Shown here one piece after another: positions 3,530 through 58,704 of a DNA stretch of 64,000 bases. The stretch comes from a phage, in the NCBI GenBank assembly GCA_011839185.1, contig GCA_011839185.1_3918.1. One strand, given 5' to 3'. The notes below the pieces were generated by a model. That model ran no database searches and had not been told where the DNA came from. It saw only the letters and a list, made by a program, of their open reading frames with translations. Position 1 is the first letter of the stretch. Every line of letters starts with the position of its first letter. A program made the position numbers and the translations under genes.

Positions 3530-4630
3530 TTACTCATAATCCCTAATAACTAGCCCGACAGGGAACTGTAAAGAACCCTTACGAGTCATCTTCTGGAACT
3601 GTACCGTTAAAGGCTTCCCGATAAACTCTTCAGGATGCTCAGCAAGATACTGTTTCTTCTCGTGTGTAGTTTTCCATGAAACATCTACAAAGACGTTAGG
3701 AAGAGTCTCTACAACGAACTTACCATGACCACGTTTATCAGTCTTTACACCAGTCACTTTAAACTCTTCAGTGTGCATCTTCTTGTGCTTAATCAAGAAG
3801 TATGAACGGTGACCACACTCATAGAATGAGTTTTCAGAGATTGAACGGTACATTGCACCTTCAAACTTAGCTTCAACCCACTTATCATGAGCTTCATCAA
3901 ACTCTTCCCAAGAGTTAACACGGCGAGACTTGACAGGAACAACTTTACAGCCATCTCTAAAGTCATTCAATGGTGAAGTCTCAATAATATCTCTACGCTC
4001 AGGCCACGTCTTAGTACTGTCACAGATATCGTACCAGTAGAACTGGAGTAGATGTCGGTCTGGATTGTCAGCATTCTTAATCATAGACACAATATCTTCT
4101 AAGTCCCAACCGTGAGCATAAATCTCACCATCAAAGTCTTCGACTTGTGGGTGCAATTTAAGCAACAAAAGCAAATCTGGGATTAGTTCTGCTGGGACGT
4201 TGTAAACAGTATTCTCACGAGAGTAAGCCGTGAAACTAACTGAGTCATTATTTCTTGAAATTCTACAACGGACACCATCAAGTTTTGGTTGAGCATCAGC
4301 AGGAAATATCAAATACTTTGCATGACTAACCTTTGCAGCATCATGAGCAAGCTGTACACCTACCTTCTCAGTATTCTGTGCAGACTCTTTCGTGTAAGCA
4401 TAACCTTTACGGTCAACTTGCTTTTTATACTTAGCAGCAACTTCAAAGAGAGCTTGCTGTTCAGCGTTACGCTCATTCTTTTTACCGATGTTTTTAGGTT
4501 CTGCTGTATACTCTTCAAACATCATCTTGCCATTTTCTTTACCATACGTGGTAACAACTTTGTCACCTACAGCAACACATGACCAGACGTTGAAGGAGCC
4601 ATCTTTATTTTGTTTGTACAGAATTGTCAT
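3530..4630 (-). CDS. ATP-dependent DNA ligase
   Basis: Nucleotidyltransferase motif I KLDGVRC (KxDGxR); start set at second Met with GAGGT RBS. Confidence 0.7.
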   Translation of the reverse strand: MTILYKQNKDGSFNVWSCVAVGDKVVTTYGKENGKMMFEEYTAEPKNIGKKNERNAEQQALFEVAAKYKKQVDRKGYAYTKESAQNTEKVGVQLAHDAAKVSHAKYLIFPADAQPKLDGVRCRISRNNDSVSFTAYSRENTVYNVPAELIPDLLLLLKLHPQVEDFDGEIYAHGWDLEDIVSMIKNADNPDRHLLQFYWYDICDSTKTWPERRDIIETSPLNDFRDGCKVVPVKSRRVNSWEEFDEAHDKWVEAKFEGAMYRSISENSFYECGHRSYFLIKHKKMHTEEFKVTGVKTDKRGHGKFVVETLPNVFVDVSWKTTHEKKQYLAEHPEEFIGKPLTVQFQKMTRKGSLQFPVGLVIRDYE

Positions 4631-4835
4631 TTTTAACCTCTGAATGATACCAAGTATAACAAGCATTACATGCGTAAAGCTCTAAGTCATTTTTATCTGG
4701 TTTATGGAAACAGTTTGACCCACAACGACACCGGAATAGCTTACCATCAACACGAAGAATGAATGTTTCAAGCTCACCCTCTTCTGTAAGGACGGCGTTA
4801 TTATATTTGTTATCTTTATCCATTTGTACTCTCAC
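4605..4835 (-). CDS. small zinc-ribbon-like protein
   Basis: CRCGSNC ... CNAC cysteine pairs. Confidence 0.35.
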   Translation of the reverse strand: MRVQMDKDNKYNNAVLTEEGELETFILRVDGKLFRCRCGSNCFHKPDKNDLELYACNACYTWYHSEVKNDNSVQTK

Positions 4836-54762: not shown

Positions 54763-54843
54763 TTTTAAAAGATGTTGACAGACTCTACAAAGTTGCTCTA
54801 AAGTCTGTCACATCAAACAACAAATGAGAGAAGAGAGTAAAAT

Positions 54844-56259
54844 ATGAGCGAATTATTTAAACATGCGCACCTTCATGCAGGTCGAACTGAAAATGGTGCT
54901 GTAAACCATACTTCATCAATGTCTGCTCTTGTAGACTTTTACAAAGCTGCTGGTTCAAGCCGTAGTAACGTAGAAATCTTACCAGACCTGTTCTACAAAG
55001 CTTTGCGTGAGGATGTTGATGTTGCAGTTCGTATTTTGCTTCATATGCGAGATGTACGAGAAGGTATGGGTGAGCGTAAAGCCTTCAGAACTGTTTTGCT
55101 TCAAGCAATTGAAGATAAAGTTTTAGAGTCTACGCAGGTTCTTCGCATTATGGATAAGATTGCAGAACTTGGTCGTTTTGATGACTTCAAAATCTTCGTA
55201 GGTACTCGTTTCGAGACAGATGCCTTCAAACATTTAGAAGAAGCATTACTAGACCCTGCAACAGCAGGTTTGGCGGCTAAGTGGTTACCACGAGTCAAAC
55301 CACGTCATAAGCAGTTTGTAAAACGTTTCTGCAAGTTTGCCAACTTGAGTGAGAAAGAGTACCGCACACTGTTGTCTGCACTATCTGATACAGTTGAGCA
55401 AAAAATCTCTGCTAATGAGTTTGGTAAGATTGACTACAGTAAGATTCCTTCACTTGCTGCTGCACGTTACCAAAAACTGTTTAACCGTAAAGATGGAGAG
55501 CGTTACAAAGCTTACATCGAGTCCTTATCAAAAGGTGAGGCTAAGATTAATGCTGGTGCTGTTTACCCATACGATGTGATTAAATCTGTCAAGCATGGTA
55601 ATGCAGATGTTGCTAATGAGCAGTGGAAAGCACTACCAAACTGGATGGCAGAAGGTGAAAACATCTTGTGTATGTCTGATGTATCAAGTTCAATGTCTTG
55701 GGTGAATTTTGGCTCCATTACTGCTCTGGATATTGGTGTATCACTTGCCTTGTATGTAGCAGAACGCAATACAGGTTGCTTTAAGAATGAGTTGATGGTT
55801 TATTCAACAAACCCTCACTTCATCGAACTGAGTGGTGATTTACGAAACCGTCATCGTCAGGTGATGCGACACGTTGAATATGGCTCAACTAACTTACAAG
55901 CAGCTTTTGACCGCATTCTTGAGACAGGCAAAAGAAACAACTTGACTCAGAAAGATATGCCAAGTAAGCTTATCATCTTCTCCGATATGGAGTTTAATCA
56001 GGTTGATGGGGCTAACGGTCGTACAAACTTTGAAGCAATTCAGAGTAAGTACAAAAAAGCTGGATATGAGATGCCACAACTGGTATTCTGGTACTTAGCA
56101 AACCGTAATGGTACTTGCGAAGTATCTGTTAAGGATAACGGTGTAGCAATGGTATCAGGGTTCTCTCCAGCCACTTTAAAAGCTCTGCTTGGTGGTGAGA
56201 AGTTTGACCCAATCAGTGTAATGCTCAAAGCAGTAATGATTGACCGTTATATCTGGTAA
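54844..56259 (+). CDS. von Willebrand factor A (vWA/MIDAS) domain protein, possibly TROVE/Ro60-related
   Basis: MIDAS-like DVSSSM ... GSTN ... FSDME in C-terminal half; 471 aa; immediately upstream of tRNA cluster. Confidence 0.55.
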   Translation: MSELFKHAHLHAGRTENGAVNHTSSMSALVDFYKAAGSSRSNVEILPDLFYKALREDVDVAVRILLHMRDVREGMGERKAFRTVLLQAIEDKVLESTQVLRIMDKIAELGRFDDFKIFVGTRFETDAFKHLEEALLDPATAGLAAKWLPRVKPRHKQFVKRFCKFANLSEKEYRTLLSALSDTVEQKISANEFGKIDYSKIPSLAAARYQKLFNRKDGERYKAYIESLSKGEAKINAGAVYPYDVIKSVKHGNADVANEQWKALPNWMAEGENILCMSDVSSSMSWVNFGSITALDIGVSLALYVAERNTGCFKNELMVYSTNPHFIELSGDLRNRHRQVMRHVEYGSTNLQAAFDRILETGKRNNLTQKDMPSKLIIFSDMEFNQVDGANGRTNFEAIQSKYKKAGYEMPQLVFWYLANRNGTCEVSVKDNGVAMVSGFSPATLKALLGGEKFDPISVMLKAVMIDRYIW

Positions 56260-56277
56260 AAAGTTTTAAAAAGGGTA

Positions 56278-56306
56278 TTGACAATGTGTTTAATACCCTT
56301 TAATAT
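56278..56306 (+). promoter_or_regulatory. sigma70-like promoter upstream of tRNA cluster
   Basis: TTGACA, 17-nt spacer, TAATAT. Confidence 0.45.
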
Positions 56307-56423
56307 GTTCTACATAGAAACGAAATGAGAGCTTTTCTAAGATACTGAAAAATATTTTAAAAAGTTCTTGACAACCACTAAAAAATAATGTTAAAGTGGT
56401 TACATAGAGTTTGAAAAGTTTAT

Positions 56424-56497
56424 CTCTGTTTAGCTCAGCTTGGTAGAGCGTTCCGTTTGGGGCGGTAAGGCCGGAGGTTCAAGTCCTCCAACAGAGA
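56424..56497 (+). tRNA. tRNA-Pro (anticodon TGG)
   Basis: Cloverleaf by eye: acceptor ctctgtt/aacagag, anticodon loop tttgggg, T-loop ttcaagt, CCA encoded. Confidence 0.75.
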
Positions 56498-56507
56498 CCA
56501 AATTAAT

Positions 56508-56582
56508 GTTCCAGTGGACAAAATGGTAAAGTCACCACTCTTTCAAAGTGGATATTTGAGGGTTCAAATCCCTTCTGGAACG
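56508..56582 (+). tRNA. tRNA-Glu (anticodon TTC)
   Basis: Acceptor gttccag/ctggaac, anticodon loop ctttcaa, T-arm gaggg-ttcaaat-ccctt, CCA encoded. Confidence 0.75.
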
Positions 56583-56676
56583 CCAGTTTTGACAGAAGAC
56601 CAATTACAGCAAACTTAATCTTATTCATCTGAAGGTAAATCGGACAAAGAAGAGATTTGGTCTGGTCATTAAGAAT

Positions 56677-56750
56677 TGCGGGTATAGAGAAAGGGCGTCT
56701 CACATGTCTCATTAGCATGGTATCGGCAGGTTCGACTCCTGCACCCGCCT
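56677..56750 (+). tRNA. tRNA with CAT anticodon (Met or Ile-lysidine type)
   Basis: Anticodon loop ctcatta; 1-72 mismatch; T-arm gcagg-ttcgact-cctgc; CCA encoded. Confidence 0.6.
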
Positions 56751-56836
56751 CCAAATTTACAGAAGACCGTTTACAGCAATATTTATTAAATTTTTAGCGG
56801 AAAAATTGAAAGATACGGTCTGGTAATACTAAACAT

Positions 56837-56910
56837 GGTTAGGAAGCACATAAGGTATGTGCGGTCGCCTGTTAAGCGAATGGCACAGGGTTCGAATCCC
56901 TGACTAACCG
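56837..56910 (+). tRNA. tRNA-Asn (anticodon GTT)
   Basis: Anticodon loop ctgttaa; T-arm caggg-ttcgaat-ccctg; CCA encoded. Confidence 0.7.
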
Positions 56911-56982
56911 CCAAATTTAGGAGAGAAGCGATTGCTCACCGATTTGTAAGGTGCAAGTCCTTAGCCTGAATAGAAATCAAAT

Positions 56983-57067
56983 GTGTCGTTATCCCGTAGA
57001 TGGTAGCGGTGGGGACTGTAAATCCCTTGTCATTGAGACTCGGTAGGTTCGACTCCTACACGGCACA
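56983..57067 (+). tRNA. tRNA-Tyr (anticodon GTA), long variable arm
   Basis: 85 nt; anticodon loop ctgtaaa; acceptor gtgtcgt/acggcac; CCA encoded. Confidence 0.7.
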
Positions 57068-57075
57068 CCAATAAA

Positions 57076-57150
57076 GGTTATGTAGTTTAATTTGGTTAAA
57101 ATACTCCCCTGTCACGGGAGATGATGAGGGTTCAAATCCCTTCGTAACCG
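57076..57150 (+). tRNA. tRNA-Asp (anticodon GTC)
   Basis: Anticodon arm ctccc-ctgtcac-gggag; T-loop ttcaaat; CCA encoded. Confidence 0.7.
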
Positions 57151-57298
57151 CCAATTTTGAGAGGGCTATTTAGCCCCTCCCTTAAAGGGTTCTTACGAGT
57201 ATCCTTTAAAGGAGCAGAAGACCAAATACAGCAAGTTACTTAAAATTTCAAGCCAATTTAATTTTGAAAAATTTAAAACTTGGTCTGGCTCAACAAAT

Positions 57299-57432
57299 TT
57301 ACAGAAGACCGTTTACAGCAAAACTTAAACAATCTATTTCTCGGTAAAGAAAAGGCGAAGGTTCGATTCCTTCACTCGGCAGATGTCGAGTTGGTGTAAT
57401 GGTAGCACTTAAGATGATAAACAACGGTCTGG
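57299..57432 (+). ncRNA. candidate structured spacer RNA with tRNA-like T-arm (unit 4 of a repeated family)
   Basis: Conserved 5' box CAGAAGACCGTTTACAGCAA pairs with 3' ACGGTCTGG; contains canonical T-arm gaagg-ttcgatt-ccttc (57357-57373) without matching 5' acceptor, and a D-arm-like agttggtgtaatggtagcac. Confidence 0.4.
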
Positions 57433-57581
57433 TAATTATCTTTGTAGATAAGTTATTAAGCTTACCTGTGAGTATGCGACCACAAAGGGTGAAAGGGTAA
57501 ATTCTAGATTTAAACCTAAAAAGGCACATCGCTACAGACCTTAAGCAAGTCTGGGTAGCTTATCTACAAAGATAATTTAAT

Positions 57582-57654
57582 GGAAGTGTAGCAGAATGGT
57601 GATGCGGCAGACTTTTAATCTGACAGGCGATGGGTTCGAATCCCTCCACTTCTA
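57582..57654 (+). tRNA. tRNA-Lys (anticodon TTT)
   Basis: Anticodon loop cttttaa; acceptor ggaagtg/cacttct; weak T-stem; CCA encoded. Confidence 0.65.
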
Positions 57655-57735
57655 CCAAATTCACCCTTAACTGAGAAACACCTGCGCGGCTGGAAACACC
57701 CACTCAACAGTTTCTCTAACTAGGGTACTTATTCT

Positions 57736-57809
57736 GGTTCAGTCGCAGATAAGGTAATGCAAGGGTCTCATAAGCCCTATGAATGTGGGTTCGATTCCCA
57801 TCTGAACCT
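57736..57809 (+). tRNA. tRNA with CAT anticodon (Met or Ile-lysidine type)
   Basis: Anticodon arm agggt-ctcataa-gccct; acceptor ggttcag/ctgaacc; CCA encoded. Confidence 0.7.
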
Positions 57810-57828
57810 CCAATTCGTTGGTGATATT

Positions 57829-58314
57829 ATGTTTTGTGCTAATAAAGATTGTGACAACAAAGCCGTTAAAGGTGGAAAGTATTGTTCACGCTCTTGTGCT
57901 GCAAGGGTAAACAACAAGAGTCATCCAAAAAGAAGACAAGAAGGCTCTTGTCATTCATGTGGAAAGCAGACACCAAAATCAAGAAAGTATTGTGATGAAT
58001 GTATTTCAAATGGTATTCTGAAACAATACAAAAACCCCGATGAAGAAAAGAAAGCGAAGTCACAACACGTTAAAAAGTCTCGTGACAAACTTAAGAGGGT
58101 TTTAGTTGATTACAAAGGTGGTTGTTGCTCAATTTGTGGATACAATAAGTGCATAAAGGCTTTAGAGTTTCACCACTTAGACCCTAATACAAAGGACTTC
58201 ACAGTAGGACAAAAACACTTCTCTATAGAGGTAATGAAGTCTGAAGTTGATAAGTGTGTATTACTGTGTGCAAATTGCCACAGAGAGGTACACGAAGGGG
58301 TAACAAAGCTGTGA
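57829..58314 (+). mobile_element. HNH endonuclease nested between tRNA genes
   Basis: C-terminal CANCHREVHEG HNH/Zn motif and multiple CxxC pairs; start reset to ATG at 57829 (track start 57757 lies inside the tRNA). Confidence 0.6.
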
Positions 58315-58380
58315 AAGCACATATGGATGTGCATTCGGCTGATAACCGAAAGGCAGAAGGTTCGAATCCTTCTCACAGTA
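58308..58380 (+). tRNA. tRNA-Ile (anticodon GAT)
   Basis: Anticodon arm ttcgg-ctgataa-ccgaa; T-arm gaagg-ttcgaat-ccttc; 5' end overlaps the HNH stop codon. Confidence 0.7.
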
Positions 58381-58398
58381 CCAATTTCAATAAAGTTG

Positions 58399-58427
58399 TT
58401 GACATTGAGATGTGACTACTTTATAGT
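58399..58427 (+). promoter_or_regulatory. sigma70-like promoter inside tRNA cluster
   Basis: TTGACA, 17-nt spacer, TATAGT. Confidence 0.45.
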
Positions 58428-58630
58428 AACCTTAGTTTTCGTTGCGTAGCGTCTATTTTGCAAATTTAAAATAAATGCAAACGACAATGTTTTTCTGGCA
58501 GTAGCTTGATAGGCTAAACACCAGTGAGGTCTTCCAATCCCTCATCAAAGAATTTGGCGTACTCGCCCACGGTATGATTAATAAGGTGGGCATCTTTAAG
58601 GGCTTTCTAAGAGAGTCTTTAAAGATTAAT

Positions 58631-58704
58631 GCACCCTTAGTTCAACTGGACAGAGCAAATGACTTCTAATCATTGAGTTACAGGTTCGAATCCTGTAGGG
58701 TGTG
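58631..58704 (+). tRNA. tRNA-Arg (anticodon TCT)
   Basis: Anticodon arm aatga-cttctaa-tcatt; acceptor gcaccct/agggtgt; CCA encoded. Confidence 0.75.

Follow-up and report, generated by a model that had tools for sequence, protein, structure and literature searches.

Ro60/Y RNA particles have been described in animals, in some bacteria and in a few phages; the RNA partners are not easily found by homology. Here we analyse a 64-kb stretch of DNA (the window) from a Felix O1-like myovirus (Felixounavirus), in which four structured spacers, units 1 to 4, sit among the first eight tRNAs of a tRNA cluster, downstream of a gene for a Ro60-like protein (54844-56259, plus strand). We propose, with a probability of about 0.7, that the four units are small noncoding RNA genes whose products are Y-RNA-like partners of this protein.

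Phage tRNA clusters can hold small stable RNAs other than tRNAs: species 1 and 2 (rnaC/rnaD) of phage T4 and RNAs of the T5 tRNA region are released by tRNA-processing enzymes. We know of no Ro60-like protein associated with them, nor of the ACAGCAA module described below. In the circularly permuted tRNA genes of Cyanidioschyzon merolae and some archaea, and in two-piece transfer-messenger RNA (tmRNA), the 3' half precedes the 5' half and a short loop joins the acceptor strands; such genes are matured to functional RNA by a bulge-helix-bulge (BHB) endonuclease and a ligase, or by excision of the loop.

The closest described systems centre on a Ro60-like protein and its noncoding RNAs, known or suspected. 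In bacterial YrlA the ends are paired and a Ro-binding motif on the 5' side precedes, in this order, the V, T, acceptor-like and D stem-loops, and YrlB is a simple hairpin (Chen et al. 2014, PMC4201824). Several Y RNAs can belong to one Ro60 locus and are cut from one shared precursor; that of Mycobacterium smegmatis is the one YrlA whose acceptor-like stem has 7 bp, and in vivo this RNA is a substrate of RNase P and receives CCA (PMC4201824). These authors caution that YrlA can be mimicked by tRNA dimers, and since their survey was limited to TROVE-annotated genomes and discarded tandem-tRNA overlaps, it would have missed the phage locus (PMC4201824). In Thermus phage phiLo, phiRo60 is proposed to modulate host RNA decay or defence (PMC12135203). 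Finally, Bas63 (Escherichia phage JohannRWettstein), a Felixounavirus in the 2024 PhageMaP preprint, is sensitised to the Ppl defence by deletion of gene 130, and gp130 alone, in T7 or from a plasmid, brings back plaquing on Ppl (PMC11482910). The preprint's authors described a Ro60-like structure for gp130 and suspected Y RNAs nearby, maybe some of the annotated tRNAs, with none identified (PMC11482910). The tRNA-cluster stretch of Bas63 is 98.6% identical to the window, and bas63_0130 (gp130, 471 aa), directly upstream of the same cluster, is the ortholog of the window protein.

Four spacers with covarying terminal stems

The cluster comprises 26 plus-strand tRNA genes called by ARAGORN (56424 to 62203), and 299 phage records match the region 56400-57700, among them Felix O1 itself, at 98.5%. 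A search of both strands, with up to three mismatches allowed, placed the 5' box CAGAAGACCNNNTACAGCAA at exactly four sites in the window (56593, 56760, 57215 and 57302); 0.15 sites are expected from shuffled sequence, and none of 100 shuffles attained four. The box occurs in its exact form at all four, and GGTCTGG follows 64-132 nt further on (56659, 56817, 57282 and 57426). A preliminary description of this stretch had recognised the four spacers by their common 5' box and complementary closing box, and had noted that the inner helix alternates between AGACCAA/TTGGTCT (units 1 and 3) and AGACCGT/ACGGTCT (units 2 and 4); the sequence bears out both observations. Unseen at that stage were an outer helix, the Ro60-like gene upstream and a permuted tRNA-like core in unit 4.

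The outer helix has 4 bp in each unit and is divided from the inner one by a fixed asymmetric internal loop (5' AGA, 3' G). It varies yet stays complementary across units (UGAC/GUCA, UUAC/GUAA, GAGC/GCUC), and orthologs from IMG/VR add UUGC/GCAA, GAGC/GUUC and GGGC/GCUC, with unit 2 of locus L012 showing the compensatory change from UUAC/GUAA to UUGC/GCAA. Because it was not used in picking the sequences, the outer helix serves as an unbiased check. Over 20 distinct Ounavirinae-type unit variants, 99.1% of cells are paired, compared with 20-44% in slid-register controls, and seven of the 11 helix pairs have changed on both sides. One-sided substitutions in the inner helix mostly produce G.U pairs (AGGCCAA, AGACCGA, AGACTGT). 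Since G.U changes keep pairing only in the plus-strand transcript, they argue for selection at the level of RNA rather than DNA. The earlier proposal that these are selected RNA structures and not drifting spacers is thus sustained by covariation in both helices, and extends across phyla (below).

Folding of the individual units, which had been suggested as a check, gave a mixed outcome: unit 4 reaches a modest z of -2.35, and units 1-3 are unremarkable (z -0.7 to -1.6). The folding energies being weak or unremarkable, the support for structure comes from comparison and not from thermodynamics. The covariance-model search that had also been suggested was positive, with the paired boxes conserved in related phages; in the window the model built from the module matched exactly the four units and nothing else, unit 3 scoring highest (23.7 bits). 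This small model (R1) loses units with long interiors, mis-pairs unit 4 and, with default filters, misses most environmental units, and we have therefore relied on an explicit pattern scan with a measured background.

All four units lie on the plus strand, 331-1176 nt downstream of the Ro60-like gene. Unit 1 (56590-56668) is a candidate short hairpin RNA resembling YrlB; it has outer strands at 56590-93/56665-68 and inner strands at 56597-56603/56657-63, separated by the AGA/G loop, and UU after the inner 5' strand leads into ACAGCAA at 56606-12. It starts 5 nt past tRNA-Glu and stops 8 nt short of tRNA-Met, and unit 2 is wedged likewise between tRNA-Met and tRNA-Asn. Units 2 (56757-56826; outer 56757-60/56823-26, inner 56764-70/56815-21, ACAGCAA 56773-79) and 3 (57212-57291; outer 57212-15/57288-91, inner 57219-25/57280-86, ACAGCAA 57228-34) would also be short hairpin RNAs. 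Unit 4 (57299-57435; outer 57299-302/57432-35, inner 57306-12/57424-30, ACAGCAA 57315-21) is YrlA-like and encloses a tRNA-like domain. The informative conserved element is ACAGCAA together with a helix of free sequence, and not the GAAGACC box, a point that the preliminary description had missed.

A helix and ACAGCAA module beside the gene in distant phages

Stated generally, the module consists of a 7-bp helix of free sequence, two nucleotides (usually UU or UA), ACAGCAA, a variable interior, the complementary strand and G(U). For comparison we fetched 13 loci from distinct lineages that carry a homolog of the Ro60-like gene, a family matching Pfam DUF2828. The module is found on the gene strand, at most loci within about 1 kb of the DUF2828 gene and in the closest within a few hundred nucleotides. 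In another 11 phage lineages it likewise accompanies a Ro60-like gene on the same strand, with no case on the opposite one. Phages that infect Actinobacteria, Firmicutes and Proteobacteria share ACAGCAA, at an identity of about 30% between their proteins. When 26 units are aligned as a composite, covariation is seen at each of the seven helix pairs, and CAGCAA is the sole invariant part. At gene-strand sites ACAGCAA is closed by a helix in 26 of 41 cases, versus none of six on the opposite strand; as background, 7-bp closure at this fixed register reaches about 5% at random positions and 0-10% with scrambled motifs.

An environmental set was fetched independently from IMG/VR by a protein-only search (67 loci, 39-47% identity). 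Under a strict rule, 29 of these loci contain one or more closed units outside the coding sequence (CDS) on the strand of the gene, and none has one on the opposite strand. Counted by occurrence, 34 of 90 ACAGCAA sites are closed on the gene strand versus 0 of 24 on the other, and most units lie within a few hundred nucleotides of the gene. All nine covariance-model matches in this set fall on the gene strand, and the model also found units outside its training set in Aeromonas phage LAh_6 and a Vibrio phage. The complete genome of Kolesnikvirus SeKF_13, from the same subfamily and with a homologous tRNA cluster, has no Ro-like gene (best tblastn E 0.76) and no module.

The arrangement differs between phages. 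Mycobacterium phage Faith1 has three tandem units just downstream of the gene, the middle one with a T arm, a capped stem (TAGCGGC/GTCGCTA) and a D arm. Two tRNA-like units and one short unit lie upstream of the gene in Enterococcus phage EFDG1, and Cronobacter phage S13 has a tRNA-like unit with ACCA in the capped acceptor loop. Short units are seen in Listeria phage A511 (three), in a Staphylococcus phage (three, 3' of the gene) and in LAh_6 (at least seven, the last ending 5 nt before AGGAG-ATG). In Fusobacterium phage Fnu1 a unit lies about 40 nt upstream of the gene, and the module is also present beside the DUF2828 gene in Campylobacter, Bacillus FADO and Yersinia P778 phages. In Vibrio phage R11Z the Shine-Dalgarno sequence lies within the single unit (L043:2961-3010), and the DUF2828 start codon is overlapped by the unit's 3' strand, which suggests autogenous translational control of the gene in that lineage.

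Some neighbours of these genes may be recorded here. Among tRNAs of A511 there is a ROOL-like RNA (L045:1465-2016; 87.5 bits, below the gathering score of 99.1, E 2.8e-16); the DUF2828 gene, with its three ACAGCAA units, lies about 1 kb downstream of it. In the jumbo phage CBB (L050) the DUF2828 gene is two genes downstream of an RNA ligase gene, with an HNH endonuclease gene between, and in LAh_6 (L042) and ME3 (L052) an AAA ATPase gene is just upstream of it. The neighbours in CBB, LAh_6 and ME3 hint at a context of RNA repair or conflict.

A predicted Ro60 fold upstream of the tRNA cluster

The open reading frame (ORF) directly upstream of the tRNA cluster (54844-56259) encodes 471 aa with a predicted helical-repeat ring and a vWA domain containing a MIDAS, an adhesion site that depends on a metal ion. 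Its Pfam matches are DUF2828 and DUF7788, with no further family even at E ≤ 10; in PHROG it matches family 850 ('RNA-binding protein'), and NCBIfam returned noise only. An AlphaFold2 model built with 35 homologs (predicted local distance difference test, pLDDT, 83; predicted template modelling score, pTM, 0.85) matches Ro60 over its full length, and in a Foldseek search of the PDB the twelve best matches were all Ro60, with 9l5y (phiRo60) among the best. The predicted fold shows a ring of alpha-helical (HEAT-like) repeats closed by the C-terminal vWA domain. The MIDAS pattern of vWA domains is DxSxS...T...D, and residues D279, S281, S283, T349 and D381, invariant in the 35 homologs, fit such a site. 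By tblastn the protein family occurs in 710 of 50,697 phage records, and its mycobacteriophage homologs are annotated 'Ro-like RNA binding protein'.

A sigma-70-like promoter candidate (TTGACA-18-TAAAGT, 54775-54804, plus strand), scoring 10/12 in a consensus scan and a consensus match only, lies upstream of this gene. Two further promoter-like plus-strand sites (56278-56306 and 56368-56397, 10/12 each) head the transcription unit of tRNAs and units, and the hexamers of the latter are identical to those of the site at 54775. A scan from the 56278 and 56368 sites to 57700 found no terminator-like site on the plus strand.

Unit 4 resembles a circularly permuted tRNA

The interior of unit 4 (57324-57413), in its minimum free energy fold, forms a circularly permuted tRNA-like domain, the sole match to a pattern scan of the window. 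An anticodon-stem-like helix (57324-27/57410-13) encloses in turn a V hairpin (57333-55), a perfect T arm (GAAGGTTCGATTCCTTC, 57357-73; loop TTCGATT), a capped 7-bp acceptor stem (ACTCGGC-AGAT-GTCGAGT, 57374-91) and, after two nucleotides, a D arm (GTGTAATGGTAGCAC, 57394-57408; loop AATGGTA with GG). The result is a cloverleaf with its acceptor stem capped and its anticodon arm opened; there is no anticodon loop, and its position is taken by the open ends and the helix and ACAGCAA module. When unit 4 and five analogs, from five phage lineages, were rotated, ARAGORN read all six as tRNA cloverleaves with an 'intron', their anticodons differing arbitrarily among relatives.

In relatives the T and D arms are constant and the acceptor stem is swapped wholesale for other complementary pairs, among them ACACG/CGTGT and ACCCTTC-GCCAAACA-GAAGGGT; of the seven acceptor-stem pairs of unit 4, three have changed on both sides. 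The GCCAAACA loop, which contains G-CCA, occurs in Moogle, L011 and L016, and L072 has CCA at the 3' side of its acceptor loop. The 7-bp acceptor stem and the GCCA or ACCA loops of relatives are no more than suggestive of a substrate for tRNA enzymes, candidates being TruB, DusA, RNase P and CCA addition. Gene order and the CCA loop of some relatives recall permuted tRNA genes, from which unit 4 differs by having no anticodon and by carrying a putative protein-binding module at its outer ends.

Three normal-order tRNA-like genes of 113-121 nt with real ACCA/CCA ends were also seen, in LAh_6 (L042:494-610) and S13 (L049:4396-4516 and 4526-4638). In place of an anticodon loop they have an insert of 45-53 nt, in which a hairpin precedes UU-ACAGCAA (LAh_6) or UA-UUCAGCA (S13). 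They are the un-permuted counterpart of unit 4.

Comparison with Ro60/Y RNA systems

The likeness to YrlA/YrlB with Rsr/Ro60 in Salmonella Typhimurium and M. smegmatis (PMC4201824) lies in several RNAs encoded on the same strand, within 4 kb of a protein with a Ro60 fold. Unit 4 shares with YrlA an end-paired stem and the order V, T, capped acceptor stem and D, with a 7-bp stem as in M. smegmatis; units 1-3 are plain hairpins like YrlB, and both systems have, next to the terminal stem and close to the 5' end, a short conserved motif that is single-stranded. Unlike the Rsr/Ro60 systems, the phage protein belongs to DUF2828/DUF7788 and not TROVE, the motif is ACAGCAA rather than GNCGAAN0-1G, and the RNAs are embedded in a tRNA operon. 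phiLo likewise combines a phage Ro60-fold protein with two adjacent Y-RNA-like genes, Yrl1 and Yrl2; there, in contrast, phiRo60 is a recognisable TROVE protein, CGAA lies in an RNA bulge, no tRNA-like domain is reported, and the setting is not a tRNA cluster (PMC12135203). The reading of the units as a variant Ro60/Y RNA system is partly anticipated by the 2024 preprint, whose guess fell on annotated tRNAs (PMC11482910), whereas our candidates are unannotated spacers. Our literature searches on DUF2828, phage permuted tRNAs, Felix O1 Ro60 and Ro-like phage/tRNA found no description of these RNAs.

Several results weigh against reading the units as Y-RNA-like partners. The canonical Ro60-binding motifs, GGUCCGA in animals and GNCGAAN0-1G/CGAA in bacteria and phiLo, are absent from the units; the terminal stem is present and covaries, and ACAGCAA (core CAGCAA) replaces the canonical sequence. 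TROVE gave no match to the protein even at E ≤ 10, and phmmer and profile hmmsearch against PDB sequences found neither Ro60 nor another solved structure, so that the homology to Ro60 rests on the predicted fold. Rfam (4227 families) placed no non-tRNA family on the units at E ≤ 1 across 56200-62400, on unit 4 alone at E ≤ 10, Y_RNA included, or on the units of seven foreign loci at E ≤ 0.1; these runs returned only tRNAs and weak chance matches. Since gp130 suffices by itself, the RNAs are not needed for anti-Ppl activity. The pattern is also incomplete: 38 of the 67 environmental loci have no unit under the strict criteria, nor do Pectobacterium phage CBB and Acinetobacter phage ME3 within 2.5 kb on either side of the gene. 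Unit 4 is not kept whole everywhere, as only the first 84 nt of a 156-nt unit-4 query matched the GenBank record of Salmonella phage SP116 and only about 34 nt matched phage FG1m, and in the IMG/VR contig L009, at 5544, a natural deletion fuses its T arm to that of tRNA-Lys(UUU). Finally, the 99.5% pairing in the composite alignment (A4) arises partly by construction, the 3' strands having been picked by complementarity, a bias addressed by the background, slid-register and environmental-locus controls.

The L009 deletion takes with it the rest of unit 4, a long hairpin and most of tRNA-Lys, and is a recombination between T arms within the cluster.

We suggest that the best explanation of these observations would be a divergent Ro60-like protein that recognises its RNAs through a new motif, and we infer that the units are expressed, processed, bound and functional as RNAs. 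The promoters at 56278 and 56368 would transcribe them together with the tRNAs. With units wedged between tRNAs, maturation of the neighbours by RNase P and 3' trimming enzymes would free them, and the closing helices, probably also the bound protein, would shield them from decay. The preliminary description had offered small stable RNAs processed with tRNAs as one possibility, and this appears to fit the layout of inter-tRNA gaps with no terminators between. The protein would recognise the shared module, that is, the free-sequence 7-bp helix with outer pairs purine-rich on the 5' strand, the two nucleotides, single-stranded ACAGCAA and the G(U) past the 3' strand; in Ounavirinae the AGA/G internal loop and the outer helix would also belong to it. 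The variable interior would be the effector part, a simple hairpin in the YrlB-like units 1-3. The YrlA-like tRNA mimic of unit 4 might attract enzymes that recognise tRNA or link the ring protein to a nuclease, in the manner of the Ro60/Y RNA/PNPase machine, and RNase P may cut the mimic itself. The ribonucleoprotein (RNP) would probably serve RNA surveillance or counter-defence during infection.

A wider reading, tentative and in our estimate rather unlikely, is that the helix and ACAGCAA module marks an undescribed and very widespread class of phage RNP, whose partners would be tRNA-shaped in both circular permutations, with the Ro-like ring holding anticodon-less tRNA bodies. In one permutation the ends would lie at the module and the acceptor would be capped; in the other, as in LAh_6 and S13, there would be a real CCA end and the module at the anticodon. 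The tRNA bodies might then act as decoys, sensors or repair scaffolds against host defences that target tRNA or RNA, some of them RNase P-processed, two-piece and CCA-ended.

Alternative explanations

The alternative that survives best, though we regard it as improbable, is that the units are operators or decoys: the protein would regulate the translation or the stability of the RNA that encodes it by binding helix and ACAGCAA sites there, and the tRNA cluster would hold copies that only titrate it. In several phages (Vibrio R11Z, Aeromonas LAh_6, Fusobacterium Fnu1) units do lie in the 5' untranslated region (UTR) directly before the gene. Since bacterial Y RNAs share the operon and precursor of Ro60 (PMC4201824), a 5' UTR position does not discriminate between operators and Y RNAs. 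In the window, however, the units come after the gene, have two promoters ahead of them and are interspersed with tRNAs, and Faith1 and the Staphylococcus phage have theirs on the 3' side of the gene. An operator has no use for a tRNA-like domain that is elaborate and covaries.

It is very doubtful that the units are cis-acting punctuation of a polycistronic tRNA precursor, providing entry sites for RNase III, E or P. They do fill inter-tRNA gaps, starting 5-7 nt past a tRNA 3' end, and other spacers of the cluster form strong helices, such as the 24-bp stem of 57433-57581. A 7-bp helix is, however, too short for RNase III, most tRNA junctions of the cluster have no unit, and the module follows the Ro60-like gene and not tRNAs: Faith1 has no tRNA adjacent to it, the nearest tRNA in the Staphylococcus phage is about 1.4 kb beyond the units, and the homologous Kolesnikvirus cluster, where the gene is missing, has no module. 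The Faith1, Staphylococcus phage and SeKF_13 loci speak equally against the earlier suggestion that the units are processing or recognition elements for tRNA maturation.

Highly improbable in our view is a genuine tRNA gene at unit 4, circularly permuted or split, from which RNase P and 3' end formation would yield a chargeable or two-piece tRNA. Its 7-bp acceptor stem, the G-CCA or ACCA at the 3' side of the loop in relatives (Moogle/L011/L016, S13 and L072), the normal-order genes of LAh_6 and S13 with the motif inserted at the anticodon position, and the cutting by RNase P and the added CCA of M. smegmatis YrlA (PMC4201824) would agree with it. Against it, no anticodon loop exists where the RNA ends meet, the loop in the window copy is AGAT and not CCA, and units 1-3 have the module without a tRNA part. 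To our knowledge bacteria have no BHB-type splicing endonuclease. A first reading of unit 4 as a true permuted tRNA gene was rejected on the missing anticodon loop and on the module that units 1-3 share without the tRNA part; cutting of its capped stem by RNase P is plausible.

That the units are decaying remnants with no RNA function, tandem-tRNA fragments combined with a MITE-like (miniature inverted-repeat transposable element) or recombination-derived inverted repeat, is hardly credible: unit 4 can be read as a 3' tRNA half followed by the next tRNA's 5' half, dimers do mimic YrlA (PMC4201824) and phage tRNA clusters hold pseudogenes and T-arm deletions (L009), but the acceptor strands of the two 'halves' are mutually complementary and replaced together in relatives, with the same in unrelated phages, the one-sided G.U-preserving changes are strand-specific, the units are confined to the gene strand and to the vicinity of the gene, the 64 kb containing no further copy, and ACAGCAA is conserved across phages of three phyla. 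A MITE or other inverted-repeat DNA element was rejected as a candidate because the units keep strictly to one strand and location and because their single changes are of the G.U type. Rfam gave no support to ribozyme or intron-like ends of the units.

Other features of the tRNA cluster

A stretch at 59700-59777 had been put forward as a related but inverted arrangement. It is not a member of the family: the 96-nt spacer 59697-59792, between tRNA-Thr and tRNA-Val, has only GAAGACCGT in common with the unit box, lacks ACAGCAA and has no covariance-model match. Its fold is stable (z -3.8), and its identity is 95-100% across all relatives, those with a Ro-like protein of just 85% identity included; it is a separate structured spacer.

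Right after unit 4, the 149-nt spacer 57433-57581 folds into a multibranch structure with a perfect 24-bp closing stem (about -47 kcal/mol, z -6.3). Citrobacter phage Moogle has a spacer in the same place with the same architecture and another sequence (L039:4970-5118, z -5.7), its inner hairpin conserved, and blastn found none in more divergent relatives. It is probably another structured RNA, possibly an RNase III substrate. Two inter-tRNA spacers, 57154-57214 (z -2.7) and 56914-56982 (z -2.2), also fold above chance; the former, immediately 5' of unit 3, is made up of two G+C-rich hairpins and is 90-100% conserved in relatives.

Between units 1 and 2, ARAGORN calls a 'tRNA-Met(CAT)' at 56677-56753 that is missing from the Rfam tRNA model matches at E ≤ 1 and has an odd D region and an extra base preceding CCA; it may be an atypical tRNA or a pseudo-tRNA. 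A Cys-rich 161-aa ORF within the cluster (57829-58315, plus strand) has an HNH-like signature by eye (EFHHLDP...CANCH) and no Pfam match at E ≤ 0.01. It is missing from the same position in Bas63, where tRNA-Met and tRNA-Ile are adjacent, and is probably a mobile homing-endonuclease insertion.

Implications for Felix O1-like phages

Some Felix O1-like phages are used in phage therapy and in Salmonella typing. In hundreds of their genomes the present coordinates correct the annotation of loci that are unannotated or covered by spurious ORFs: unit 4 is unannotated in nearly all of the 253 phage records that contain it, and in Bas63 two candidate units are overlaid by the spurious minus-strand CDSs bas63_0137 and bas63_0138. 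The signature of a free 7-bp helix, two nucleotides and ACAGCAA flags putative partner RNAs beside DUF2828 genes in phages of at least five bacterial phyla. For a phage protein genetically shown to defeat Ppl, the units provide candidate RNAs with coordinates, and they make it testable whether a Ro-like ring may recognise a different motif, what purpose a tRNA mimic would serve and whether RNA may modulate counter-defence.

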